Shown piece by piece: positions 497 to 39,743 of a stretch of DNA of 43,440 nucleotides. The notes under the pieces are model-generated. The model was given only the letters and a program-made list of their open reading frames with translations. It had not been told where the DNA came from and made no database searches. The DNA lies in the NCBI GenBank assembly GCA_963648625.1, contig CAVJEZ010000001.1:1-43440 (forward strand), read 5' to 3'. This DNA comes from Odoribacter splanchnicus. Lineage in GTDB: Bacteria; Desulfobacterota; Desulfovibrionia; Desulfovibrionales; Desulfovibrionaceae. Position numbers and translations under genes: made by a program. Position 1 is the first letter of the stretch; the number at the start of each line of letters is the position of its first letter.

Positions 497-1957
497 ATGC
501 AGGATTTGACAGAACTTTCCCTCACAGAGGCTGCCAGTGCCCTGAAAGACGGCAGCATCAAGGCTCAGGATGCCGCAAGGGCCTGCCTTGACCGCATTGA
601 GGCAACGGAAGGTAAGCTTGGCGCCCTTCTCCATGTGGATGCAGAAGGGGCCATGAAGCTGGCTGAAAAGATGGACAGCGAGGGGCCTGATCCCGCTAAG
701 CCCCTGTGGGGCGTGCCGGTTACCATCAAGGATGCCCTCTCTACCAGCACCATGCCGACAACTGCGGCTTCCCGCATCCTTGAAGGCTTCAAGCCTGTCT
801 ATGATGCCTATGCCGTGCAGAAGATGCGCGAGGCCGGAGCCATTATCCTTGGCAAGAACAACATGGACGAGTTCGCCATGGGATCCACGACTGCCAACTC
901 TGCCTACCAGGTGACGCACAATCCCTGGAATACGGACAGGGTGCCCGGCGGTTCCTCTGGCGGATCCGCCTGCTCTGTTGCTTCCGGACAGTGCTTTGCC
1001 TCCCTTGGCTCGGATACCGGCGGTTCCATCCGCCAGCCTGCCGCCTTCTGCGGCTGCGTGGGCATCAAGCCCACCTATGGCAGGGTGTCGCGCTACGGCC
1101 TGATTGCCTATGGTTCATCCCTTGACCAGGTCGGCCCCCTGACCAGGACTGTGGAAGACTGCGCCCGCGTGCTCTCAGTCATCGCCGGCTGGGACGAGCG
1201 TGACATGACCTGCTCACCGAAGGATGTGCCCGACTATCTTGCCGGCCTTAATCCTGCCGATCTTGCAGGCCGATCCGTGGGCATTCCGAAGGAGTATATG
1301 GGCGAGGGCCTGTCAGACGAAGTCCGCAAGGGCGTAGAACAGGCAACAGAGGCACTGAAAGACCTTGGCGCAAAGGTTGTGGAAGTGAGCCTGCCCAGCA
1401 CAGAGGCCGCCATTGCAACCTATTATATTATAGCCATGGCTGAAGCCAGCTCCAACCTGGCCCGCTTTGATGGTGTCAGGTACGGGCACAGGAGCAAGGA
1501 AGTTCTGGACCTGCAGGACCTGTACAAGAATTCGCGCAGGGAAGGCTTTGGCGAGGAAGTCAAGCGCCGCATCATGTTGGGAACGTTTGTCCTCTCAGCC
1601 GGCTACTACGATGCCTACTATAAGAAGGCCGCCCAGGTGCGCAGGCTTATCCGCGACGAGTTTGTGACGGCACTGGGTTCCTGCGACTGCCTCCTGGCTC
1701 CTGTATCGCCCATTGTGGCCTGGCCTCTGGGAGCCCATCAGCAGAATCCCTTGCAGGTATTCCTCATGGATGCCTATACCTGCCCCATCAATCTGGCCGG
1801 ACTGCCCAGCCTGTCCATGCCGGCAGGGCTTGGAGAATCCGGCATGCCTGTCGGATTGCAGCTCATAGGCAGGGCCTTTGAGGAAGGAACCCTCTTCAGC
1901 ATCGGATCTGCCCTTGAGAAGAAGCTGCCGCCCCTGGGCAGGCCCAAGGGACTGTAG
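497..1957 (+). CDS. gatA: Asp-tRNA(Asn)/Glu-tRNA(Gln) amidotransferase subunit A
   Basis: Amidase signature [32 protein letters not shown] and [22 protein letters not shown]. Confidence 0.97.
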
Positions 1958-1990
1958 AAAGGCTTTGCAGCCTGAAAAACTGAAAAAGAG

Positions 1991-2031
1991 GGAGACGTCC
2001 TGGCCATAGCTGCCGGGGCGTCTTCTTTTTT
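1991..2031 (+). terminator. Rho-independent terminator after gatA
   Basis: ggagacgtcctggc / gccggggcgtcttc stem (with G-U pairs) followed by a T-run. Confidence 0.7.
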
Positions 2032-2116
2032 ATGCCTGCATTTGCCAAAACTGCCGGAGTAGTACATAAACAGGCGAGCTGAAAAACACTTTTCCGGAAA
2101 AACATAAGGAGAAAAT

Positions 2117-4934: not shown

Positions 4935-5037
4935 GTGCCTGTTGAAAAAGGCTGCAAGGTGCCTCAGTTTGTTGCCTGATGCTACATATTTTCGTCAGTA
5001 CAGACCTGAAGATGACGCAATGTAAGATTGAAGGCAA

Positions 5038-5074
5038 TTGAAAACTTGCCTGTGCATGACATGCAAGTTTTCAA
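5038..5074. repeat. 12-bp perfect inverted repeat upstream of COG1373 ATPase 1
   Basis: ttgaaaacttgc-N13-gcaagttttcaa. Confidence 0.85.
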
Positions 5075-5188: not shown

Positions 5189-6496
5189 ATGAAAATCAGG
5201 CGTGACCGCTATTTGAAGCAACTTACAGACTATATATGTGACGGGCAGGTGAAGGTGATTTCCGGGATCCGCGGATGCGGCAAATCCTATCTTCTCCACA
5301 CACTGTTTCGCGAGCATCTTCTCTCTAATGGGGTTGCAGAGAATCACATTCTGTCCTGCGATCTCGATATGGAGCAGGATTTCCGCTACCGCAATCCTCT
5401 TGAGCTTGCATCATGTTTTCGCAAGCGTGTTGAGGGATCCTCAGGGCAGTTTTATCTCTTTATAGATGAGATTCAGAAGGCCTGCGAGGTGCCGAACCCC
5501 TATAATCCCGATGGCAGGAAAGTCACAGTCTATGATTCCCTCAATGACCTGAAATCACTTCCCAACCTGGATGTGTACGTAATTGCAGGCACTTCCATGA
5601 TGCTGCCGTCAAACATACCGACGGAGTTTCGCGGGCGCAGTGATCAGATTCGCGTTCATCCTCTGAGTTTCTCAGAATATTATGCTGCTGTTGGCGGGGG
5701 CAGGCAGGAAGCTTTTGACAAGTATGCCCTTTACGGAGGCCTGCCGTACTGCCTGTCCCTGCCTTCGGATACCATGAAGAAGGAGTATCTCAGCTCCGTC
5801 CTTGAAGGACATGTGAAGGAGATTGCAGAAAGCAGGAAAGTCAGGCGCTCTGATGCACTGCCCGCTCTTTGGGAAGTGCTTTGTTCGTCCGCCGGCTTCC
5901 TGACCAGTCCGGAACGTATCGCAGCAGCCCTTAATGCAGGGCAGATTCAGAGCGGGAAGAAAGCGGTCGCACTCAAGACAGTACAATCACAGCTTGACTG
6001 TCTGTCTGATGCCTTTCTCTTCAGCTTATGCAAACGATGGGATGTCAGGGACAAATACTATACCGGCTTTCCAGCCATGTATTACTGCGAGGATACAGGC
6101 CTCCTCAATGCTGCTGCAGGCTTCAGACAGCCGTGCATGCCGCAGGTCATAAAGAATATCATCTTCAATGAGCTTGTTGTCCGCGATTGTGCCGTGGATG
6201 CCGGCATTGTTTATGACAGCAGGGCTACAAGCTGCGGCAGCATGCCTGAGGCCAGAGAAATCGATTTTATTGCAAGCTATGCAGGCAAGAAATTCTACTT
6301 CCAGTCTGCCTGTGGCCTTGTAACAGAGGAAAGGTATGCTGCCGAAACAGGCCCGCTTAAGCTTGCCGGGGACAGTTTCCCCAAAATTATCGTGTGGCAT
6401 GATACCTGCAGCCGCTGGTATGACGACTATGGCATCTTCAATATCGGAATGCCTGACTTTTTGCTGGATGATACGCTTCTGAGCCGCTATCCCTGA
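5189..6496 (+). CDS. COG1373-type ATP-binding protein (AAA_14 + DUF4143), divergent copy
   Basis: Walker A GIRGCGKS, Walker B FIDEIQ, PLSFSEY, YGGLP, C-terminal EIDF...YFQSA; clearly paralogous to 36820-38073. Confidence 0.88.
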   Translation: MKIRRDRYLKQLTDYICDGQVKVISGIRGCGKSYLLHTLFREHLLSNGVAENHILSCDLDMEQDFRYRNPLELASCFRKRVEGSSGQFYLFIDEIQKACEVPNPYNPDGRKVTVYDSLNDLKSLPNLDVYVIAGTSMMLPSNIPTEFRGRSDQIRVHPLSFSEYYAAVGGGRQEAFDKYALYGGLPYCLSLPSDTMKKEYLSSVLEGHVKEIAESRKVRRSDALPALWEVLCSSAGFLTSPERIAAALNAGQIQSGKKAVALKTVQSQLDCLSDAFLFSLCKRWDVRDKYYTGFPAMYYCEDTGLLNAAAGFRQPCMPQVIKNIIFNELVVRDCAVDAGIVYDSRATSCGSMPEAREIDFIASYAGKKFYFQSACGLVTEERYAAETGPLKLAGDSFPKIIVWHDTCSRWYDDYGIFNIGMPDFLLDDTLLSRYP

Positions 6497-27622: not shown

Positions 27623-30544
27623 GTGAAAGAGACTACTGTTGTTATTATAGGCGGCGGTGCTACCGGTGCAGGCCTTCTCAGGGACCTTGCCATGCGCGGC
27701 GTGCCGGCCATGCTCTTTGAAAAGGGCGGCTTGTGCCACGGCACAAGCTCGCGCTTTCATGGCCTATTGCACAGCGGCGGCAGATATGCCGTTTCCGATA
27801 ATGAGGCTGCTTCCGAGTGCATCAGGGAAAATACCATATTGCGCCGCATAGGAGCAGGCTGCATACACGAAACCGAGGGCTTCTTTGTCCTGACAAAGGA
27901 AGATGATCCTTCCTATGTTTCCAGCTGGACTGCCGGCTGCCGCAAGGCAGGCATTGAGGCAAAAGAACTCGATCCGAAGGAAGCCCTGCGCATGGAGCCC
28001 GGCCTTGATCCTTCCATGCAGAGGGTCTTCCAGGTGCCTGATGCCGCCATAGACGGCTTCAGGCTGGTGCTGCACAATGCCATGAGCGCCGAGCGCTATG
28101 GCGGCACCTTCTATACCTATCACGAAGTGCTGGGCATTTTGTCTGAAAACGGCCGTGTCACCGGCGTCGAGGTCCGCAATACGCAGACTGGCGAAACAAT
28201 GCGCATCAACTGCCAGCTTGTCGTCAATGCGGCCGGTTCCTGGAGTGCCGAGGTTGTCAAAAGCTCTGGCATCCATCTGCCCTTAACACCTGACAAGGGC
28301 ACGCTCATTGTCTTCAACAGGCGCATTACAAACCATGTGGTCAACAGGCTGCACAAAAGCGGCGACGGCGACATCTTTGTGCCCAACGGCTCGGTGACCA
28401 TATTGGGCACGACATCGCAGACCGTGGACGATCCCGCAGACTTCAGCACCACCACAGATGAAGTGCTGCGACTGCTGGACCTTGGCAGGCCCCTTTTCCC
28501 TGCCATCGACTCCTACAGGATTCTGCGTGTCTTTGCCGGCACAAGGCCCTTGTACACGCCTGGTCCCGATGCTGGCCGTGCCGCATCCAGGGGCTTCCAT
28601 ATCAGCGACCATGCAGAAGACGGCATGGAAGGCCTGATGACCATCTTTGGCGGCAAGCTCACCACCTACAGGCTTATGGCCGAGAAAATGGCCGACATCG
28701 TCTGTGCAAAGCTTGGCGTGACTGCAATGTGCCGCACTGCGGACGAAGCCCTTGTGCCTCAGCCGGCAGACTGGGCCCAGACTTCTGCCAAGACAGTCTT
28801 CCTGCCCCAGAGCATAGGACTTGTTGCCGACAGGCTGGGCGATGATTTTGCCGCCTGCATAAGGCAGACAGGCTGCAGGGGCAAGAACAACCCCATGGTG
28901 TGCGAGTGCGAGATGGTCTCCATGGCAGAGCTTCTGCACGTGGCCTCCCAGCCATCCACCCATTCACTGACAGACGTGCGCCTCAGGACCAGGCTTGGCA
29001 TGGGAACATGCCAGGGCACATTCTGCGGCCTGCGTGCAACTTCTGCCCTGGTGGAGCACGGCATAGTCTTTGGCAATCCCCTTGAGGATATGCGCAACTT
29101 TGTGACCGAGCGCTGGAAGGGCACAAGGGCTGCCTTCTGGGGACAGCTTGCCAGGGAAATGGAACTGGCAAGAGTGATGTATTCCTCTGTCTTTGACAGC
29201 AGGGAAGACGTTCCTGCCGTATCCTCGCTTAAGGCAAAGCCTGAGGCTGCGAAAGAGGACGCAGGCAGCAAGGCGCCTGCCCTTTCCACAAGAACCAGTG
29301 ACACAGTCGTTGTCGGTGCAGGCCTTTCCGGCATGTTTGCCGCCCTGCTTGCAGCCGAGGCCGGCAGAAAGGTTACCCTGATAGCCAAGGGCGCAGGAGC
29401 CCTGGCCATAGGATCGGCGACTATTGACGTGCTTGGCGCAACAGGGAAGGGCAAAGTCTCAGGCAATCCCCTGGACAGCCTGGGAGACCTTGCAGAAAAT
29501 CATCCCTACAACCTTGTGGGACGCAAAGCTGCCGAAGAGGCTCTTGCCAGGTTTGCCGATGAGACTGCCAGGAGGGACTGGCCCATGACAGGGTATGAAG
29601 GAAATGCCCTGGCAAACCACCTTCTGCCCACAGTTCTCGGCACTGAAAAAATTTCTGCCCTTTATCCGGCCTCGCTTGATCCGGCACCATTGCTTGCAGC
29701 CAAAAGAATCCTCGTCTGCGGCATAGAGGGCCTGCGTGACAGCATGCCAGGCATGGCAGTCCATACCCTGCGCAGCAATCCTGCCTTTGCCGGCAAAAAG
29801 ATTGACCATTGCTGGCTTCCCACGCCCTGGCAGGGAACCTACCGTGTGGAGACTGCCCTGGATGTGGCAAGGGCCCTGCAGGGATCCCTTTGCGAGGACT
29901 TCATGCGTGCCCTGGGCAAGGCGGCAGAAGGCTATGACGCTGTTCTCATGCCGGCTGTGTGCGGCATACAGCCTGATCTTTCCATCTGGAGCAGGCTCTG
30001 CTCTGCCGCAGGATGCCCTGTGGTGGAAATGACGGGCCTGCCTCCGGGAGTAACCGGCATGCGCCTTGGAAAGCTTTTGCAGGAATCGCTGGCTTCTGCC
30101 GGCGTTACCATGCTTGAAAACACAAAGGTCACGGGCTTTGAGCAGGAAGGCGGCCGCATGACTGCCCTGCGCACAACCCATAAGGACGGCGACCGCCTCT
30201 ATGTTGCCGAACAGTTTATTATTGCCACAGGCGGCATAGTCAGCGGCGGCCTGGAAATACATCCAGGGTTCGCCAAAGACTCTGTCCTTGGCGTGGCATC
30301 AGCCCTGCCCAGTGACACGGCTTCCTGGGCCCTGCCTGATCCCCTTGGTCCGCAGGCCTTTGCCCTGCTTGGCATGCCTGTCTTAAAGGGCCTTGAGCCG
30401 ACACTGGACGGGCAGGAGCCGTATTTAAGCAATGTCCGCTATATCGGGCGTGCCATAGCCGGACAGGATTCTGCCTTTGAGCGCAGCGGCAACGGCATTG
30501 CCATAGCAACGGCCTATGCCGCTGTCACAAAGCCCTGGCTGTAG
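27623..30544 (+). CDS. glpAB: Fused anaerobic glycerol-3-phosphate dehydrogenase subunits A+B
   Basis: GlpA: IIGGGATG, HGLLHSGGRYA, GGKLTTYRLMAE, BFD-like CECE...TRLGMGTCQGTFC; after a linker, GlpB: VVGAGLSG, PPGVTGMRL, IATGG, SGNGIA. Confidence 0.88.
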   Translation: MKETTVVIIGGGATGAGLLRDLAMRGVPAMLFEKGGLCHGTSSRFHGLLHSGGRYAVSDNEAASECIRENTILRRIGAGCIHETEGFFVLTKEDDPSYVSSWTAGCRKAGIEAKELDPKEALRMEPGLDPSMQRVFQVPDAAIDGFRLVLHNAMSAERYGGTFYTYHEVLGILSENGRVTGVEVRNTQTGETMRINCQLVVNAAGSWSAEVVKSSGIHLPLTPDKGTLIVFNRRITNHVVNRLHKSGDGDIFVPNGSVTILGTTSQTVDDPADFSTTTDEVLRLLDLGRPLFPAIDSYRILRVFAGTRPLYTPGPDAGRAASRGFHISDHAEDGMEGLMTIFGGKLTTYRLMAEKMADIVCAKLGVTAMCRTADEALVPQPADWAQTSAKTVFLPQSIGLVADRLGDDFAACIRQTGCRGKNNPMVCECEMVSMAELLHVASQPSTHSLTDVRLRTRLGMGTCQGTFCGLRATSALVEHGIVFGNPLEDMRNFVTERWKGTRAAFWGQLAREMELARVMYSSVFDSREDVPAVSSLKAKPEAAKEDAGSKAPALSTRTSDTVVVGAGLSGMFAALLAAEAGRKVTLIAKGAGALAIGSATIDVLGATGKGKVSGNPLDSLGDLAENHPYNLVGRKAAEEALARFADETARRDWPMTGYEGNALANHLLPTVLGTEKISALYPASLDPAPLLAAKRILVCGIEGLRDSMPGMAVHTLRSNPAFAGKKIDHCWLPTPWQGTYRVETALDVARALQGSLCEDFMRALGKAAEGYDAVLMPAVCGIQPDLSIWSRLCSAAGCPVVEMTGLPPGVTGMRLGKLLQESLASAGVTMLENTKVTGFEQEGGRMTALRTTHKDGDRLYVAEQFIIATGGIVSGGLEIHPGFAKDSVLGVASALPSDTASWALPDPLGPQAFALLGMPVLKGLEPTLDGQEPYLSNVRYIGRAIAGQDSAFERSGNGIAIATAYAAVTKPWL

Positions 30545-30557
30545 GAGGACGTGCAGG

Positions 30558-31766
30558 ATGAATACCAAGAACAAAAAGATGCCTGTGGGCGTTGATCCCG
30601 ATGCCTGCATAGCCTGTACTACCTGCACGGTTTTCTGCCCCGTAGCCGCTGTGTCAGGCGAATTCCTGGGCCCCAAGATGATAGGGCCCGCCTATGAGCG
30701 CTTCCGCCTGTCCGGGCTTGAGGAAGACAAGTCGCTGAGCTACTGCTCCAACTGCAAGAACTGCGACATCTCCTGCCCCCAGGGCGTGAGCATTGCCAGC
30801 ATCAACATGGTTGCCAGGGCAAAGCAGTACGGTGAAAAGCATCCCCATTTCCTGAGGGACTGGATTGTCAGCCATGCAGAGACAGTGTCCTCCCTCATGT
30901 GCTTTACCCCTGCCAGCCTCAACAACAAGCTGATCAGCCTTCCCATTGTCCGCAAGGCCATGGACTTTATCGGCATCTCAAAGGGCGCTCCCATGCCGCC
31001 CTATGCCGCCAAAAGGTTCAGGAAAAGGATCAAGGAGCTGAACCAGGTGGCGACCGGCAAAACAGTCGCCTTCTTCCCCGGCTGCTATGTGGATCTCTAT
31101 GACGCAAAGGCCGGCGAGGATCTGGTATGGCTTCTGGGCAAGGCCGGATACAAGGTAGTGATACCCGATGAGTTCCGCTGCTGCGGCGTGCCCATGATAG
31201 CCAACGGCTTTATGGACGATGCCAGAAAGAATGCCGCCCGCAACCTTGCAGCCATGCGTTCCATGGCAAAACAGGGCATTCCGGTAATAACGGCCTGTCC
31301 TTCCTGCGAGCTTATGCTCAAGGAAGAGATTCCCTCCTTCTTCCCCGAACTGGCAGAAGAAGGCATGCCTGTCATCACGGACGCCCAGGAATTTGTCCTG
31401 AACGAGATACAGGAAGGAAGGCTTTCCCTTTCCCTGAAAGAGGCGCAGGCAAAGGTCATCTACCATGCGCCCTGCCATATGCGAGCCCTGGGGATTGGGC
31501 TTCCCGGCTATGAGCTCATGAAGACCCTCGGCATTTCCTGCCAGGCCGCCAATGCCGGCTGCTGCGGCATCTCGGGAAGCTACGGCTTCAAAAAGGAAAA
31601 GCATGAGGTAGCCATGAAGGTAGGAGCCGAGCTTTTTGACGCGGTCAGGAAAAGCGGCGCTTCCTATGTAGCCACTGAATGCGGCACCTGCCGCCTGCAG
31701 ATTACAGGGGCAACTGGCATTCCCTCGCTGCATCCTTTCAGCCTGATCAGGATGCTGGCTGAATAA
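30558..31766 (+). CDS. glpC: Anaerobic glycerol-3-phosphate dehydrogenase subunit C
   Basis: Two CxxCxxCxxxCP motifs and CCG domains (CCGVP, CCGISGSYGFK); AGGAGG RBS. Confidence 0.93.
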   Translation: MNTKNKKMPVGVDPDACIACTTCTVFCPVAAVSGEFLGPKMIGPAYERFRLSGLEEDKSLSYCSNCKNCDISCPQGVSIASINMVARAKQYGEKHPHFLRDWIVSHAETVSSLMCFTPASLNNKLISLPIVRKAMDFIGISKGAPMPPYAAKRFRKRIKELNQVATGKTVAFFPGCYVDLYDAKAGEDLVWLLGKAGYKVVIPDEFRCCGVPMIANGFMDDARKNAARNLAAMRSMAKQGIPVITACPSCELMLKEEIPSFFPELAEEGMPVITDAQEFVLNEIQEGRLSLSLKEAQAKVIYHAPCHMRALGIGLPGYELMKTLGISCQAANAGCCGISGSYGFKKEKHEVAMKVGAELFDAVRKSGASYVATECGTCRLQITGATGIPSLHPFSLIRMLAE

Positions 31767-31803
31767 GGCTTTCTCGCCCCGCCAGGGGCAGATAAGAATA
31801 TAA

Positions 31804-31840
31804 AAGAGCAGGCTGCGAACCGGATTCGCAGCCTGCTCTT
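31804..31840. terminator. 16-bp hairpin between convergent glpC and the lprI-like gene
   Basis: aagagcaggctgcgaa-ccgga-ttcgcagcctgctctt. Confidence 0.75.
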
Positions 31841-31905
31841 GCTTTCAGAAAAGAAATCCTTCGTGGAGTAGCAGTCCCACCACAAAGCGGTTTCGGGCCT
31901 GGGTC

Positions 31906-32325
31906 TTACATACCCTCAGACTTGAGCAGCTTTGCCTGCTTCTTGGTTTCTTCAGCCAGGAAGCCTGCGGCACTCAGCCTGCTCATGGTTCCGTCAGAAG
32001 AGCTGTAGATATACTCGGCCATGCCTTCCTTGTACTGTATCCAGGCCCTCTGAGCCTTTTTCAGGTTGGCTTTGCATTGCGGAGTGCCTTCCTCATCGCA
32101 GTTCTTCATGGCCATTTTGTAGTTTTTGTTGAGGATTTTGTCCCAGTACTGGTAGGCAGAATCGTAGCATCCAATCATGTCTGTAGTTGCACTGCTGCGG
32201 TTCATGCAGGCATTGAAGCCAGGGGCCAGTTCCTCTTCTGCTGCCTGGACGGCACAAGGTGCAGCCAGGGCGGCACAAAGAAGTCCGCATGTAACAAGTT
32301 TTGCCGGAGTAAAGCTGATAGCCAT
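31906..32325 (-). CDS. Secreted LprI-family (DUF1311) lysozyme-inhibitor-like protein
   Basis: Signal peptide; C-M...TTDMIGC...WDKILNKNY...LKKAQRAWIQYK; AGGAG RBS. Confidence 0.8.
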   Translation of the reverse strand: MAISFTPAKLVTCGLLCAALAAPCAVQAAEEELAPGFNACMNRSSATTDMIGCYDSAYQYWDKILNKNYKMAMKNCDEEGTPQCKANLKKAQRAWIQYKEGMAEYIYSSSDGTMSRLSAAGFLAEETKKQAKLLKSEGM

Positions 32326-32957
32326 AATGTTCTCCTTTGTCTGAGGGCCTGGTTTAGAGGCTTGCAGCACTCAGCCCTCTGCTTGAGGTATTCAGTCCAT
32401 TTTTCAAAAAAAGGTGTGGGGTACTATAAGCAGGACAATTTGAAATTTGGTTATTTTCAGGGGAAATGTCAATATATCTTGCATATAAATTGCATGTATT
32501 GCAATGGGAAAGTTCAGTGTACAGAAGTTGCTACCGGATGATTATCATAGCAGTCTGGTATGCTATCCATTTTAGTACATGCCATTCTGCTTCTTTTATG
32601 GTGAGTTTGTGCAGGGATTTGGCCTTTGTGCCGGAACAGCGGTACGGCTGCCATAATGTGCAGTACTGACAGAGATGTTGTCGTGCCATCATTCCTGAGC
32701 AAGCTGGTAAGGAAAAGACTATTGCCATGAAGCAGGCTATTAGATAGAAAATAGTGGCAGTGAACCATATGCTGTGAGTACATGACTGATTTAAACACCG
32801 GAGGACAAACTGGCCGGCAACAATGGGATGTTCCGGCTGGAAATCCTGCTTTGTACCTTAATGGTATTTGCATGAAGTCATGAGAGGGTATCTAGAAACA
32901 GGCTGTTGCTTTTGCAATACTGTTACCCTGCATCTTTTGCTTTTGAGGAAATCTTTT

Positions 32958-34154
32958 ATGAGCGCAGAAACAAACCTCCAAGCTGGCAATATACTTCCTG
33001 CCCAACAGAGCAAAGAGTACCTTGAAAAAATGAAGGATGTACTTGAAGTTTCTGATGAAGATTTAAAACGTCTGAACGAGCTGGTTGCAGATTGTTTAGA
33101 ATCATACCACACCCGTCCGGCGGGACAGGACTGGTCAGAGTGGCTCAAAAATGAAGGGGTACGTCACGCCAGGGCATGGAACAGTGAAGACGAGCGGGTG
33201 CAGGACGTTAAGCAGATTATAGATAAAGCGGAAGAAATTACTGCCACTTATCAGAATTTCGGGGAGCACATTGCCCAGGGGAAAAGTGCTGAATTCTGGA
33301 TTGCCAAAAAGATTGAAAGCGGCGCAAAGTACCTTGGAATTGATACAAGCCGGTATGCGCAAAGTATTAAAGAAGCCTTGCAGAAAGCAAACAAGGATGT
33401 TTATGAACAGCTCGGAAGGATTCCGCTTGTCGGGGACTTTGCCGTTTCCAAAGAGCAGATCGAAAGGGGAAATAATGTTACTGCCGGTCAGCCTGCTGAA
33501 TGGAATGATTTCACCCGTATCGCAGTAGCAAGAGATATCAAGCAGTTGAGCCTTGATAACGTTAGTGCCAATTTAGCTTCCAGGGAAGCGGTAATGCAGG
33601 CTCAGGAGCCTCTCAATAAAGAGACGGGCTTCGAAAAGCATGATTTCAGCAGGGATCTGGAAGAGTCTTGCAAAACATCCTTGAATGAAGCTGTCAACAT
33701 TGGTCTTGGAAGTGCTGTGGCCGTAGCCCTGATAGTGTTTAGCCGTGGTACTCAGTCTGATTTATTAGGCTCTGTACCTGCGGATATCATAACTGCTATA
33801 GTCTTTGATACACTGAACAAGAACAGAATTATGTATCAGACTGCCAACGGGAGCATAGGTCCTTTTGAGGTAGTTGATGCCTCTTTAAATTCAACAGTAG
33901 TTAATCTTGGAGGCATGGTGGGAGGCCGGTTGGGCGCGTCAGTAGGCGCTGTTGTGGGCTCTGTTTTTGGACCAGCAGGTACATGTATTGGCTCTCATGT
34001 TGGCAGTCTTGTGGGGAAACAGGCTGGCCCCATAGTTGCTGAGAAGTTGTATGGTGGGTCTAAAAAAGTCTGCAGCGTTGTCAGCAGAACAGTTAGTTCA
34101 GTTTGTATCTCTGATAGTAGGTTTGTTAAAGGTGTATCCAGCCTGTTTTCCTGA
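32958..34154 (+). CDS. Hypothetical protein: helical N-terminus, hydrophobic segments, C-terminal glycine zipper
   Basis: GAGG RBS; IGLGSAVAVALIVF; LGGMVGGRLGASVGAVVGSVFGPAGTCIGSHVGSLVG (GxxxG repeats). Confidence 0.8.
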   Translation: MSAETNLQAGNILPAQQSKEYLEKMKDVLEVSDEDLKRLNELVADCLESYHTRPAGQDWSEWLKNEGVRHARAWNSEDERVQDVKQIIDKAEEITATYQNFGEHIAQGKSAEFWIAKKIESGAKYLGIDTSRYAQSIKEALQKANKDVYEQLGRIPLVGDFAVSKEQIERGNNVTAGQPAEWNDFTRIAVARDIKQLSLDNVSANLASREAVMQAQEPLNKETGFEKHDFSRDLEESCKTSLNEAVNIGLGSAVAVALIVFSRGTQSDLLGSVPADIITAIVFDTLNKNRIMYQTANGSIGPFEVVDASLNSTVVNLGGMVGGRLGASVGAVVGSVFGPAGTCIGSHVGSLVGKQAGPIVAEKLYGGSKKVCSVVSRTVSSVCISDSRFVKGVSSLFS

Positions 34155-34242
34155 TTGTACGAATGACGGATACATTAAAGGTATGTAACAAAATTCAGTA
34201 ATAAGCCTGATTGATGATATTATGCTATAGAGAGAAAAAAAA

Positions 34243-35157
34243 ATGGCAAAGACAATTAAATTCAACCTTATTTGCGATGGCAATCCTGTTCGTACTATAG
34301 AGGAATTACAAAATAACTTTTCTATTCAGGATGTCTTGGAGTTGTATAATAACAAACAGCTCCACCGTTGGCTAAAGGTTAGAGGATATCCGCAATTTGA
34401 AGATGTCACTAATATTACCGCAAGTGACCCGATGGAAATCATCAAAGAACTGATACGTATTTTCGATATTGAAACTGATAAACAAGAAATTGAAAAAGAT
34501 ATTTATATCCTTAATTATTTGGAAAGGCGCAAGGAACGTTATGCTGTTTATAAGCAGGAAAATTATAATATAGAGAGAATTATTAATGATTATGAAAGTG
34601 GATATGATGCGCTGGTAAGGGACATATTAAGACATCCTGATGATGTTGCTTTTATTAAGGCAAAGATCCATGCAATTATTGCAAATTATACATGGATACT
34701 GAAACGGGACCACAGAGCATTGTTTTACATGTTGGCAGAAAGGTCTCCCCTGGCAATTATGTGTCTTTTGATGAATAAACAGTGCAGAAACTATTATCTT
34801 CCTGTTGCAGTTGCTGGTGAAGACGGAAAAAAAAGCTTTGATATAGATAAGGATTTCGATAAACGCCAGATGTATGAGAAAATCAAAAAAATGATTACAG
34901 ATAAGCGTATACTTAATTCATTAGGTGAAAATCTTATTACAGAATCAAGCGTGTCAACTGGTATCTGGACGCAACTTCAGCCTGGTGGCAGGAAGTTCAT
35001 GATTGTCAGCATGGACAAAGGAGACTATGTCTGTCCTGCTTATCCGGGAGGCGATGGATTGTCTGTGCAGGACATTAGGGATAAATTTGTTATCATTAAT
35101 GGTATTGATTATAAGAGTAGTAGTGCAAAGCACTGCTTGCGTTACATGAAGGTTTAG
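34243..35157 (+). CDS. Hypothetical protein (304 aa)
   Basis: Long AT-rich ORF, N-terminus MAKTIKFNLICDGNPVRTIEELQNNF; stop 2 nt before the AAA+ ATG. Confidence 0.85.
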   Translation: MAKTIKFNLICDGNPVRTIEELQNNFSIQDVLELYNNKQLHRWLKVRGYPQFEDVTNITASDPMEIIKELIRIFDIETDKQEIEKDIYILNYLERRKERYAVYKQENYNIERIINDYESGYDALVRDILRHPDDVAFIKAKIHAIIANYTWILKRDHRALFYMLAERSPLAIMCLLMNKQCRNYYLPVAVAGEDGKKSFDIDKDFDKRQMYEKIKKMITDKRILNSLGENLITESSVSTGIWTQLQPGGRKFMIVSMDKGDYVCPAYPGGDGLSVQDIRDKFVIINGIDYKSSSAKHCLRYMKV

Positions 35158-35159
35158 CC

Positions 35160-36707
35160 ATGCAGGAAAGTCAAGTTAATATATTGGCTTCATATATCAA
35201 CGCCTTGCACCCTATTATTTACATTAATCATTTTGATTCAAAGGTGATTGATGATGCAATTAGGAAGATTGGTAAATTATCTACATATTATGTCGAATAT
35301 AATAATGCCTTAGGTGCTGTAGATTTTAAAACAAAAAGATCTCTGCATGAATGTGATCTTGAAAATTTTCTAAAATCAGCACTAGAGTTAGGTTATGACC
35401 AGGATACATTTCTTATTTTAAGAGATATTCATGGTGAAATGAATAACCATAAGGTAATTTCACTTTTAAAAAGAATTGCTGAAAAAAATATCAATACTGA
35501 TAATTACAATACAACCATCCTGATTATATCAGAAGTCGTTGTAATTCCACGTGAACTGGAAAATTTCATAACCGTATTTGAGGTCCCTTTGCCGACAATT
35601 GATGAAATTCATACGCTGATATGTAATTTCGTTGACGACCACGAAATTATTGTGTCCGAAGAGGATATTAATGACATTGCACTTTCCTTAAAGGGGCTAA
35701 ATGAATTCAATATACTGCAGATACTTTATCTTGCTTATCAGGACGGCGGCTGTATCGGCAGAGATAATAAAAAATTAATTTTAAAGGAGAAAGAGCAGTT
35801 TGTAAAAAAATCGGGCATGCTCGAAATAGTACACTTTTCGGAGACGGTTGATGACATCGGCGGTCTAGAAAATTTAAAAAAATGGCTTGGAAGAAAGGCC
35901 GAAGTTTTTAGAGAATTGGACAAAGCTATAAAGTTTGGCGTAGCTGTCCCTAGGGGTATCATGATTGTTGGCATGCCAGGCTGTGGCAAAAGTCTGACTG
36001 CAAAGGCAACTGCCAGCCTGTTTGAAATACCTCTGGTTCGTCTTGACGTTGGCCGTTTACTGGGGAAATACGTTGGCGAATCCGAAAATAATATGCGAAA
36101 GGCGTTGAAACTTGCCGAAGCAATCAGTCCTTGTGTCCTGTGGATTGATGAAATAGAAAAAGCGTTCGCCGGTATCGGAGCAGATGACGGTAATGGTGTT
36201 ACTACACGTCTTTTCGGTCAGTTCCTTACCTGGATGCAGGAAAAAGAAAATACGGTCTTCATAGTTGCAACGGCTAACGATATCTCCAGAATGCCACCTG
36301 AGTTTCTGCGAAAAGGAAGGTTTGACGAATTGTTTTTTGTTGACCTTCCCAATGATGAAGAACGTATGAAAATTTTGGACATCCATCTGAAAAACCGCAA
36401 GAAATGGAATAAAGCTATTGATTACACTGCGCTGATTAAGGAAACTGAAGGTTTTAATGGAGCTGATCTTGAAGCAGTGGTCAATGACACCATTGAAAGG
36501 GCATTTATTGACCAAAGAACTGAAATTACAACAGAAAATTTGATTTGTTCTGTGAGGGATACAACGTCTATTTCAAGTACGTTGAAAAATAAAATAAAAC
36601 AAATCAGGGATACTGTAAGCGCAATGGACATTAAGCGTGCGAGCATTGAAATTAGCCAAAGTACAGTTAAAAATTGTTTAACGATGATTGCAAGCAAGGT
36701 TCGCTAA
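35160..36707 (+). CDS. Ycf46-like classic-clade AAA+ ATPase (degenerate N-terminal module plus active module)
   Basis: [10 protein letters not shown], Walker A GMPGCGKS, pore loop KYVGESE, Walker [31 protein letters not shown]. Confidence 0.9.
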
Positions 36708-36819
36708 GTAGCAGTTACGGTCAACTCATATTTGTATACTTAGGCACTACATTGCTTGTTTTGACGTTACAGATTGAGCGGGTGCCCATAACTGTCCATA
36801 ACAAAAAGAGGCCTATCCG

Positions 36820-38073
36820 CTAAAAGTCCAGACTGTCTTTATTAAGAAGAAATTGCAGGATGCTCATAATGAGAATGCCATCGTTATTATAATGCGGTGT
36901 TAAACAATCTCTTGTAATTATTATTTTCTTAAACCCATCTTTTGTCAGTAGCAGGGATCTTTGTTCCTGTGCGAATTTTTCTTTATCATCTACAGAGAAA
37001 GAAGATTGTATGTGATAGCGCTTTGAACACTTATTACAGACAAAATCAATTTCATACTGTACATGTACGCCATTGCCAGCTTGGTTTGTCCTATTGAATG
37101 GAACAACTCCTACATCAACAGAAAAGCCACGCATTTTCAGCTCATTAAAGATGATATTCTCCATGGCATGAGTTTCTTCTATCTGGCGAAAATTTATATG
37201 CGTATTCCGTAAGCCTAAATCTGTAAAATAGTATTTGTATGGTGTATTAATATATCTTTTGCCCTTAACATCATATCGAATTGCCTGATCAATAAGAAAA
37301 GAGTCACACAGATATTCTATATATTTTTCAATAGTATTTTTACTAACGACAGTTTGCTTCATGCTCTTGAATGTCTTTGAAAGCCTTGTCGGGTTAGTAA
37401 GCGAGCCAACAGAGGAAGAAAGAATATTTAGTATATCTTTCAGTTCATCTTTTTTACGAATTTTGTGTCTGCGTATAATGTCCTTGATATAGGTTTCATC
37501 CAGAATGTCCTTCAGGAAGGCTGTTTTCTCGTCAGGGTCATTCATCTGAGCTATTTGAGGCAGGCCGCCGTAGAGCATGTATTCCGTCAGGCTTTTTTCC
37601 TGCGAACCCTGATATACGGACATGAATTCAGCAAAACTGAGCGGGTACATATGTACTGCAATGCCTCTGCCTTCGAATTCAGTGACAACGTCTTTGGAGA
37701 GGAAGCGGGCATTGCTTCCGGTAACGTAGACATCGACATTTTTTCTGTTATTCAGGCTGTTGAGCACTTCAACAAACTCGTCGAGCATCTGTATTTCATC
37801 CAGCAGGATGTAGTACATGCCGTTATCTTTGATTTGTTCTGTAATGTGCGGATGGAACACATTGGGGTCGCGGAAGCGCTTGTTCTCAAAGAAGTCAAAG
37901 TTCATTTCAAGAATATGGCTGCTGTCTGTTCCTTCTGCCAGAAGATGGTTTTTGAAAAGAGTGAACAACAGATAGGATTTGCCACAGCGGCGAAGACCGG
38001 TGATTACCTTGGTGATACCATTGTGTTTTTTCCTTATCAGGCTGGCCAGGTAGGAATCTCTTTTGATTTCCAT
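36820..38073 (-). CDS. COG1373-type ATP-binding protein (AAA_14 + DUF4143)
   Basis: GLRRCGKS, LLDEIQ, YVTGSN, PLSFAEF, KYYFTDLGLRN, MENIIFNEL, EIDFV...YHIQS. Confidence 0.92.
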   Translation of the reverse strand: MEIKRDSYLASLIRKKHNGITKVITGLRRCGKSYLLFTLFKNHLLAEGTDSSHILEMNFDFFENKRFRDPNVFHPHITEQIKDNGMYYILLDEIQMLDEFVEVLNSLNNRKNVDVYVTGSNARFLSKDVVTEFEGRGIAVHMYPLSFAEFMSVYQGSQEKSLTEYMLYGGLPQIAQMNDPDEKTAFLKDILDETYIKDIIRRHKIRKKDELKDILNILSSSVGSLTNPTRLSKTFKSMKQTVVSKNTIEKYIEYLCDSFLIDQAIRYDVKGKRYINTPYKYYFTDLGLRNTHINFRQIEETHAMENIIFNELKMRGFSVDVGVVPFNRTNQAGNGVHVQYEIDFVCNKCSKRYHIQSSFSVDDKEKFAQEQRSLLLTKDGFKKIIITRDCLTPHYNNDGILIMSILQFLLNKDSLDF

Positions 38074-38164
38074 TGCAACTTCCCAAAATTACCAACAGTA
38101 CAAAGCAGGGAGTCTGAGGCACCTGCCAGTCTTTATGGGAAAGCAGGCAGATGCCGGAATTGTA

Positions 38165-38381
38165 TTCTAATGACTATTTTTGCGGGTATTGCAACAAATA
38201 GTCATTAGAAAAAGACTGATAAAAGATGCTGGCCGGAAGAGCAGGGGAGGTACAGGACCTTTGTTGACTGTTTTTGCGAGTATCTCAAGAAAAAGTCAGC
38301 AGACACGGCAAATCCTTTGCAAGATGGGAGACATGGGATCGGGTAGCGCTGTAATCCTGCTGACTGTTTTAGCGGGTATTG
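38165..38381. repeat. Mini-array of palindromic 34-bp repeats with unique 60-62-bp spacers
   Basis: Units at 38171, 38265 (28/34 identical to the first) and 38361 (19/21 over the first 21 nt, then truncated); periods 94 and 96 bp. Confidence 0.8.
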
Positions 38382-38396
38382 GATGTTTGGCACAAT

Positions 38397-38427
38397 AAAA
38401 AAGCCACCCGCACAAAATGCGAGTGGC
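38397..38427 (-). terminator. Terminator of the TRAP operon
   Basis: gccacccgca-caaaa-tgcgagtggc with an A-run on its left (U-tract on the minus strand). Confidence 0.7.
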
Positions 38428-38462: not shown

Positions 38463-39743
38463 CTACATAAGGAAGTTCAGCGGGATGAGTGAAAGTTCCG
38501 GTACGAAGAGCAGCAGGAAGAGCATGAATATCTCAACTATCAGGAATGGCAGAAGCTTCTTCACCAGGTGTGCAAACTTGATTTCGCCAATACCGCAGAC
38601 CACATAGAGAACCGTTCCCACAGGAGGCGTGATAACGCCGATGCCGAGGTTCAGGATGAAGAGCAGGCCGAAGTAGTACGGGTCAATGCCTGCCTGTGTG
38701 ATGAGCGGATAGAAAACAGGGGCGAAAATCAGGATGTTGGGCGTCAGGTCCATCACCATACCCATAAAGAGCATGAAGACCATGATGGCGCAGAGCAGAA
38801 GCTTCGGCGAGTCAATGAGCGGGCTGAAGAACTGCACAACCTGCTGGGGAATCTGGGCAACTGTAATGAAGAAGCCGACAGCAGAGGCTGTTGCCACGAC
38901 AAACATAACCACAGCCGTGGTACGGGCAGCATTGGCGCTGACGCGGATAAGGTCGCGTATGCTCAGCTCGCGGTAGTAGCCCATGCAGACCACGATGGCG
39001 TAAATAGCTGCGAAGGCGCCGCCTTCTGTGGGTGTAAAGATACCGAAGCGGATGCCGCCCAGCAGGAGGACGGGCATCATGAAGGCCGGCGTGGAATCAA
39101 GGATGATGCGGCGAACTTCGGCCTTGGTGAAGGTCATCGTGTCGTTGTAATTGTCTTTGCGGACGATGAAGTACCACATCACCATGAGGGCCAGGCCGAT
39201 AAGGATGCCAGGCGTCAGGCCTATCATGAAGAGTTTTGTGATAGACAGACCGGAAACTGTGGCGCCCAGGATAATAAAGTTTGTGCTGGGCGGAATGATG
39301 GGGCCTAAGATAGCGCCGGATGCGATGACTGCACCGGCACGTCCCTTGTCATAGCCGACCTGCTTCATCATGGGCAGGAGAAGGCCGCCAAGGGCTGCTG
39401 CCTCGCCCACTGAGGATCCCATAAGGCCGGCAAAAATAATGGAGGCAACAATGGCTGCATAGCCCAGGCCGCCGCGGATGTGGCCCACCATGAGCTGTGC
39501 CAGGGCGACAACGCGTTTTGAAAGGCCGCCCACTGCCATGATTTCGCCAGCGAAGACGAAGAAGGGAATGGCCAGCAACGGGTAGTTATTGGCACCATCC
39601 AGCATGGAGTTGGGGATGATCATGGCATCCCACATGCCGGAATGGAACATGAGCACCACTGCGCAGATGGCAAGCACGATTGCCAGGGGGATGCCCAGCA
39701 GCATGAAGAAGAATAATGTTCCCAGGAAGAGTAGTAATTCCAT
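38463..39743 (-). CDS. dctM: TRAP transporter large permease
   Basis: LLAIPFFVFAGEIM, GPIIPPS, GIFTPTE, ITPPVG. Confidence 0.94.
   Translation of the reverse strand: MELLLFLGTLFFFMLLGIPLAIVLAICAVVLMFHSGMWDAMIIPNSMLDGANNYPLLAIPFFVFAGEIMAVGGLSKRVVALAQLMVGHIRGGLGYAAIVASIIFAGLMGSSVGEAAALGGLLLPMMKQVGYDKGRAGAVIASGAILGPIIPPSTNFIILGATVSGLSITKLFMIGLTPGILIGLALMVMWYFIVRKDNYNDTMTFTKAEVRRIILDSTPAFMMPVLLLGGIRFGIFTPTEGGAFAAIYAIVVCMGYYRELSIRDLIRVSANAARTTAVVMFVVATASAVGFFITVAQIPQQVVQFFSPLIDSPKLLLCAIMVFMLFMGMVMDLTPNILIFAPVFYPLITQAGIDPYYFGLLFILNLGIGVITPPVGTVLYVVCGIGEIKFAHLVKKLLPFLIVEIFMLFLLLFVPELSLIPLNFLM

Follow-up and report, generated by a model that had tools for sequence, protein, structure and literature searches.

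PDC-S01, in which an ATPase is fused to a PD-(D/E)XK domain, originates from a guilt-by-embedding screen (10.1101/2024.01.29.577857) and has been reported to rank fourth in frequency among defence systems across prokaryotes, with most core PDCs still awaiting validation (PMC12988326), and to be the single locus encountered most often in rumen genomes (PMC13356809). DUF4143 has been catalogued as a PD-(D/E)XK family whose function is unknown (PMC3424549) and is mentioned elsewhere as a REase effector (10.64898/2026.10.19.760177). The window, i.e. the whole stretch of 43,440 nucleotides that was analysed, contains a gene of this kind with a short series of palindromic repeats upstream.

Inverted repeats at a gene's own promoter are familiar from toxin-antitoxin, AbiE and restriction-modification C-protein operons, where there are typically two of them, recognised by a helix-turn-helix protein that the module itself encodes. 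Structures of Orc1 show the protein bound to DNA on long sites with A/T tracts, and NTPase+REase genes of the present kind were reportedly proposed in 2016 to be mobile elements. The most probable reading of the repeats (approximately 70%) is that they are autogenous operator sites, at which the ATPase itself most likely binds and represses its own gene.

Repeat units, gene product and inserted DNA in the window

An initial annotation had described a CRISPR-like mini-array of 34-bp units separated by 60- and 62-bp spacers, comprising U1 (38171-38204), U2 (38265-38298) and a truncated U3 of 21 nt (38361-38381). All three units were confirmed at these positions, with identities to U1 of 28/34 (82%) for U2 and 19/21 for U3 and start-to-start spacings of 94 bp (U1-U2) and 96 bp (U2-U3), and the perfect 15-bp inverted repeat attributed to U1 was likewise recovered (arms 38165-38179 and 38196-38210). 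The three repeats are real and above chance expectation, as a 19-nt core, itself a pattern derived from the three copies, had three matches in the window where shuffled sequence gave a mean of 0.02, with 0/100 shuffles reaching three, and was absent from the rest of the 2.1-Mb genome when up to three mismatches were allowed. The extent of the unit was corrected: U1 and U2 align in register with, and are complete copies of, a 42-bp dyad site found in relatives, and U3 represents half of it, so that the spacers are 52 and 54 bp, and the supposedly differing stem extensions of U1 and U2 correspond to the CTA...TAG termini of a single conserved site (Table 1).

Of the window's sites, O1 alone scores above the matrix cut, and all three do so in L001 and L002, two loci which share the dctM context and the three sites of the window and whose proteins are 88% identical to its product; the orthologues of O2 score 23 bits in L001 and 37 bits in L002. 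O3 adjoins the tail of the dctM terminator, and a weak outer arm is also seen in the distal copies of L002 and L085. The gene start lies 93 nt past the full U1 site, in agreement with the distance of about 90 bp first given. A minus-strand TAGAAT noted as overlapping U1 is present at 38164-38169, but is weak as a promoter, having a 19-bp spacing to TTGCAA, and is not kept in L001.

Table 1. Coordinates of the sites, gene and flanking features within the window
Feature	Position	Strand	Description	Score or context
Accessory island (approximate)	31800..38400		GC 0.33-0.47 vs ~0.57	between CCG/4Fe-4S gene and dctM
AAA_14 + DUF4143 protein	36820..38073	-	417 aa	Pfam PF13173 + PF13635, COG1373, PADLOC PDC-S01
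Site O1 (U1 + flanks)	38167..38208		full 42-bp dyad, closest to gene	22 bits (matrix trained on proximal sites of 61 relatives)
Spacer 1	38209..38260		52 bp, ordinary intervening DNA	orthologous to same-position spacer of L001 and L002
Site O2 (U2 + flanks)	38261..38302		full 42-bp site, more decayed	below the 14-bit matrix cut
Spacer 2	38303..38356		54 bp	positional orthologue in L001 and L002
Site O3 (U3)	38357..38381		gene-proximal arm and centre; other arm absent	half-site 25.6 bits (self-included matrix)
Intrinsic-terminator-like hairpin	38403..38427	-	follows host dctM	right edge of inserted DNA
Host dctM	38463..39743	-	TRAP transporter	26 other dctM loci without site

Membership of the gene product in PDC-S01 was assigned by the PADLOC profile PDLC04787 (E 1e-117). 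A structure model built on 57 sequences (pLDDT 90, against 37 for a single-sequence model) predicts a STAND/Orc1-like ATPase at residues ~1-190, a winged-helix region at ~205-285 and a C-terminal alpha/beta domain at ~297-417 carrying the motif residues E341-I-D343 and Q356-S-S. In the full-length model, region 205-285 is arranged as helix-strand-helix-helix-hairpin and is aligned with Orc1/SSO1545. Over residues 1-295 the model matched PabY2304 (2qen, Z 18.5) and SSO1545 (2fna, Z 18.4), with rmsd 3.3-3.5 over ~261 aligned residues, as well as the DNA-bound Cdc6/Orc1 2qby (Z 12.8, rmsd 10.2, 260 aligned) and plant NLR/STAND domains. Sequence searches of solved structures returned nothing significant, and Atlas look-alikes of the C-terminal domain were mostly unnamed clusters, one of them with DUF4143 on 15% of its members. 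The description of the product as an NTPase with DUF4143 and a nuclease-like motif stands as regards AAA_14, DUF4143 and the retained EID, but the motif in the window reads EIDF...YHIQSS and has no canonical lysine. Across the subfamily, EID is kept in 154/166 members and QSA (QSS in the window) replaces (D/E)xK in 157/166. The complete D...(D/E)xK catalytic set of a PD-(D/E)XK nuclease thus appears to be absent, and the putative nuclease may have a variant active site.

The lower-GC DNA between dctM and the CCG/4Fe-4S gene (30516-31766) holds an LprI-family gene, two genes with no Pfam match, an AAA ATPase and the AAA_14+DUF4143 gene. In L202 and L203, the two nearest loci with informative flanks, dctM is followed directly by the CCG gene where the ATPase gene is absent, which indicates that ~6.6 kb was inserted in the window. 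No island terminal repeats or target-site duplication were found. Within the inserted DNA, 32868-36707 (+) is low in GC and encodes proteins of 428 and 304 aa that match nothing in Pfam, PADLOC or NCBIfam, and after them an AAA ATPase of 515 aa whose IetA/IteA-like match is below threshold; these genes may form an accessory or defence operon that has escaped annotation. Separately, the dctM of L002 (G152) is 97% identical to that of the window, and the Firmicutes-genus label of that genome is at odds with its content.

The 42-bp site and its promoter in relatives

Loci of relatives were fetched from genomes (80) and metagenomes (80), with proteins 62-88% identical to that of the window. After four L001/L002 duplicates were dropped, 153 loci at a minimum of 60% identity were retained, 149 of them with enough upstream DNA and 133 distinct, and a site matrix was trained on 61 proximal sites. 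The site that emerged is a 42-bp dyad, on the gene strand roughly CTAnTGAnnA-[A/T tract]-TGCG-N6-CGCA-AAAA-TnnTCAnTAG, with CTA...TAG at its ends and then, moving inwards, a TGA/TCA-type box, an A/T tract and a TGCG/CGCA box around a 6-nt centre. The matrix detected two copies in 94 of the 133 distinct regions, one in 28, three in 2, twelve in 1 and none in 8, and in 7/8 of the last group a variant pair is visible by eye, six with a 5-nt centre. The loci L079, L080, L160, L176, L182 and L183 form a clade with the 5-nt centre in both copies, the usual centre being 6 nt.

Among the 91 pairs spaced 73-78 bp apart, 82 bracket a sigma70 promoter of the TTGTAA-17-TATAAT type whose -10 box ends 1 nt before the proximal copy, against 0/91 at each of seven shifted control positions. 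The distal copy in this usual layout lies just upstream of the -35 box, and is therefore outside the transcript of that promoter, and the proximal copy, starting 1 nt after the -10 box, spans the transcription start up to the ribosome-binding site. Given this fixed register, the usual 'spacer' between copies is the promoter of the gene. Recovery of the proximal copies is partly circular because the matrix was trained on them, which does not apply to the distal sites or the promoter register, and all these counts overstate independence because the relatives are kin. The register holds in relatives but not in the window's own clade. Copies are 93-96 bp apart in the window (about nine helical turns) and 63 bp apart in the array of a paralogue on contig C127 (about six turns), versus the usual 75-77 bp, and no convincing promoter lies within either array, so that the sites of the window may repress nothing.

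The site belongs to the gene rather than to its surroundings. In the window's own genome, which has 12 DUF4143 matches, matrix matches of at least 18 bits occur exclusively before the two members of the gene's own subfamily, and in five other genomes the gene-linked sites were the best matches, with a few matches elsewhere at 1-2 mismatches. The hosts of relatives span several phyla, and across 47 dereplicated loci no flanking ORF was shared by more than 4, no gene besides the ATPase co-travelled with the site and no recombinase did so. None of 150 genomes sampled from the host family yielded a member of the subfamily, which occurred in 2/41 genomes sampled from a neighbouring genus. Viral contigs contained four relatives of the protein (43-44% identical) and 0 matches to the strict site pattern, and thus show no sign of phage-borne decoy sites. 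A site-like sequence of 26 nt is common to three unrelated genomes (G155:C1:97525, G156:C3:121631 and G157:C3:108528) at 1-2 mismatches, away from matched ATPase genes, and is probably a terminator-type element. In the window, L001 and L002, a sequence past the stop codon that weakly resembles the site was out of register and was set aside.

Private palindromes or repeats were also found de novo at more distant paralogues (L087, L089, L192, C139, C112 and window 5189), and are only suggestive, since controls also reached 15/16 and 18/22. At L087 there are three copies of a private motif ~85 bp apart, and L093/L099 is a divergent gene pair with a separate motif for each gene. The second PDC-S01 gene of the window, at 5189-6496 (+), encodes a product 34% identical to that of 36820-38073(-) and has an unrelated palindrome with 16-bp arms (15/16 complementary) at ~5030-5070, some 150 bp upstream.

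The position of the site, its symmetry and its co-travel with the gene support the operator alternative offered in the initial annotation, in which the ATPase would bind the repeats. The best candidate for the binding element is the Orc1/STAND-like winged helix of the gene product, which would most likely engage the sites as a symmetric oligomer, and self-repression would keep a potentially harmful ATPase-nuclease scarce. In a tree-based comparison of 92 two-site loci from this narrow subfamily, protein changes on branches where both sites change were not enriched in the predicted recognition helix (34/84, p=0.56), and the best single helix position, 245 (8/10, p=0.014), would not survive correction. 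In the window lineage, the gene arrived with the island beside dctM and no clear promoter is left between the copies, and the three copies would serve as a decaying operator or roadblock array acting on weak or read-through transcription.

Concerted change and alternative readings of the sites

Neighbouring copies change together. In the four central bases, changes on the same branch to the same base numbered 16 against 2.1 expected from other columns, with corresponding values of 9 against 0.9 for the flanking pair and of 20 against 7.0 and 15 against 3.3 for the arms. Across 62 nearest-neighbour pairs, 12/58 distal centre differences were mirrored exactly in the proximal copy, at a background difference rate of 0.126 per site and with some rows repeating one event, and five of the mirrored rows have an identical recognition helix. 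Copy number also varies. The paralogue L082 (G000:C127, gene 790-2040(-), 63% identical) has an upstream array at 2051-2848 with 12 matrix matches and a degenerate 13th at an exact 63-bp period, built from duplicated A/B units, and its orthologue L085 has three copies at 63 bp with unique spacers. The perfect A/B middle of the long array could be inflated by assembly, and its diverged ends indicate that some of the amplification is real. A single hybrid site, with the distal left arm and the proximal right arm and lacking a 75-bp promoter module, is present at L009, L013, L022 and L123.

Misalignment between close direct repeats explains such concerted change without any enzyme and would be the simplest cause of the concerted change, amplification and hybrid sites alike. 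It would keep neighbouring copies alike and delete or multiply them, a mechanism that fits the observed pattern and would account for the mutations shared between centres, for the single sites of hybrid make-up and for the array of 13 copies at the paralogue.

An unlikely alternative to operator function is that the sites serve as a loading or sequestration platform, on which an oligomer is parked inactive and from which it is freed when an invader degrades or displaces the DNA; the DNA would then act as antitoxin or sensor, copy number would tune the dose and the protein's own nicking might homogenise the copies. Such a role would fit the persistence and expansion of arrays with no visible promoter, whether three copies at 93-96 bp (window, L001, L002) or at 63 bp (L085) or 13 at 63 bp (C127), as well as the excess of centre changes shared by both copies on one branch, some of which occur with an unchanged recognition helix, and the standing of the family as a defence candidate with a STAND-like fold. 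Against it, the dominant design brackets a promoter, the canonical catalytic lysine is missing in most of the subfamily, repeat misalignment makes an enzyme unnecessary for concerted change, and the middle of the C127 array is the part open to assembly inflation. A tentative elaboration, to which only a small chance is given, is that a protein from among the commonest uncharacterised defence candidates is held in check by its own DNA, the helically phased 42-bp sites on which it oligomerises forming the antitoxin or sensor and the array a genetic accordion, in which 1, 2, 3 or 13 copies, kept alike by conversion that the protein's own nicks might start, would tune or silence the system, and which would outlast the promoter.

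It is quite unlikely that the sites are recombination or insertion sites of a loxP or att type, moving the gene as a cassette or excising its promoter. Their arm-centre-arm geometry is of that kind, centres match within a locus in 80% of cases against 48% when shuffled, O3 is a half-site at the island edge, and L052 carries a third full site 66 bp past its stop codon. In addition, 4/28 single-site loci resemble precise promoter deletions between copies that leave a hybrid site, although the four are metagenome assemblies which share one upstream flank and may therefore represent a single event or a collapse. A site downstream of the gene was seen in just 1/148 loci, that of L052, the far end of the island has no matching half-site, no recombinase co-travels, and dctM loci lacking the gene carry no site (0/26, from 0/3 and 0/23). 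These observations argue against integration or excision at the sites.

The units are very unlikely to be hairpins within a regulatory RNA, whether a processed one, as had been raised at the outset, or one in the 5'-UTR. The arms do covary (52 two-sided changes, 0/500 shuffles, length fixed), but a symmetric protein site predicts equal covariation of its arms. The 327-nt leader folds at z -3.87, but palindromic direct repeats alone lower the folding z. The proximal copy does lie between transcription start and ribosome-binding site in relatives, but the copy upstream of the -35 box, on the untranscribed side, is conserved equally well. Stem mismatches show no preference for G-U over A-C (88:105 proximal, 87:83 distal), pairing at stem positions 11-14 is lost in between 10 and 18 of 30 sequences, and seven weak Rfam matches by E-value included none near the gathering score. 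The block beside the GCG box is 93-97% A/T, with A·A at 135/396 proximal and 170/336 distal positions interrupting the stem, as expected for shape read-out of duplex DNA. Together, the lack of a G-U preference and the frequent A·A within the A-tract block indicate a DNA site and not a guide RNA.

The CRISPR-like framing was not borne out, as the spacers are inherited by position and are drifting. Spacer 1 aligned to the same-position spacer of L001 and L002 with z of 5.5 and 8.2 and to the other spacer with z of 0.2 and -0.6, and spacer 2 gave z of 3.7 and 5.0 to its positional counterparts and 0.4 to spacer 1. Among the window, L001 and L002 there is thus no spacer turnover, only the same order and identity with drift. 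Against limited collections, the spacer region had no match in phage and one chance-level match (E=1) in plasmids. The absence of cas genes was correctly noted: a Pfam scan of 32 translated frames of the window identified none, and a search of the genome (88% complete) did not recover Cas1. The repeats are also not near-identical, given 82% identity and a half-site as third copy. A CRISPR- or TIGR-like guide array of an undescribed RNA-guided system, as might be suggested by a trio of repeats whose spacers are unrelated to one another, next to an ATPase gene with a nuclease-like domain, is therefore extremely improbable and was rejected on the positional orthology of the spacers, the lack of a phage match in the collection searched and of Cas1, the use of the 'spacer' as promoter in relatives, most of which have just two copies, and the duplicated, similar spacers of the long C127 array.

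Comparison with described systems

A defined cognate DNA site would give PDC-S01 its first substrate for assays of binding, ATPase and nuclease activity; phage screens may give different results with clones that include the upstream sites and clones that lack them, and concerted evolution together with site expansion suggests a simple way in which the gene could be tuned or silenced. The outcome for the CRISPR-like lead is negative. No description of the upstream sites was found in the accessible literature, and as far as searched an operator site at PDC-S01 genes is unpublished, autogenous control itself being a known type.

The gene is a member of PDC-S01 by AAA_14 + DUF4143 architecture and by profile, but differs in that its subfamily lacks the canonical catalytic lysine and in having upstream DNA sites, which are not mentioned in the accessible part of the PDC-S01 description (PMC12988326). 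The likeness to CRISPR mini-arrays and TIGR arrays is confined to the outward repeat and unique-spacer look of three units, whereas the window has decayed repeats and no spacer turnover, no targets in the collections searched and no Cas1, and the usual spacer in relatives is a promoter. With archaeal Cdc6/Orc1 and SSO1545/PabY2304 the protein has in common the ATPase and winged helix, but at ~15% identity, with an added C-terminal DUF4143, as an accessory gene and with nothing to suggest a replication origin. The resemblance to toxin-antitoxin, AbiE and C-protein operators lies in inverted repeats, typically two, at the gene's own promoter. Here, however, it is the ATPase-nuclease that presumably binds, no separate regulator co-travels, and the copies of a site that is long, at 42 bp, lie on either side of the promoter rather than overlapping its -35 and -10 boxes.
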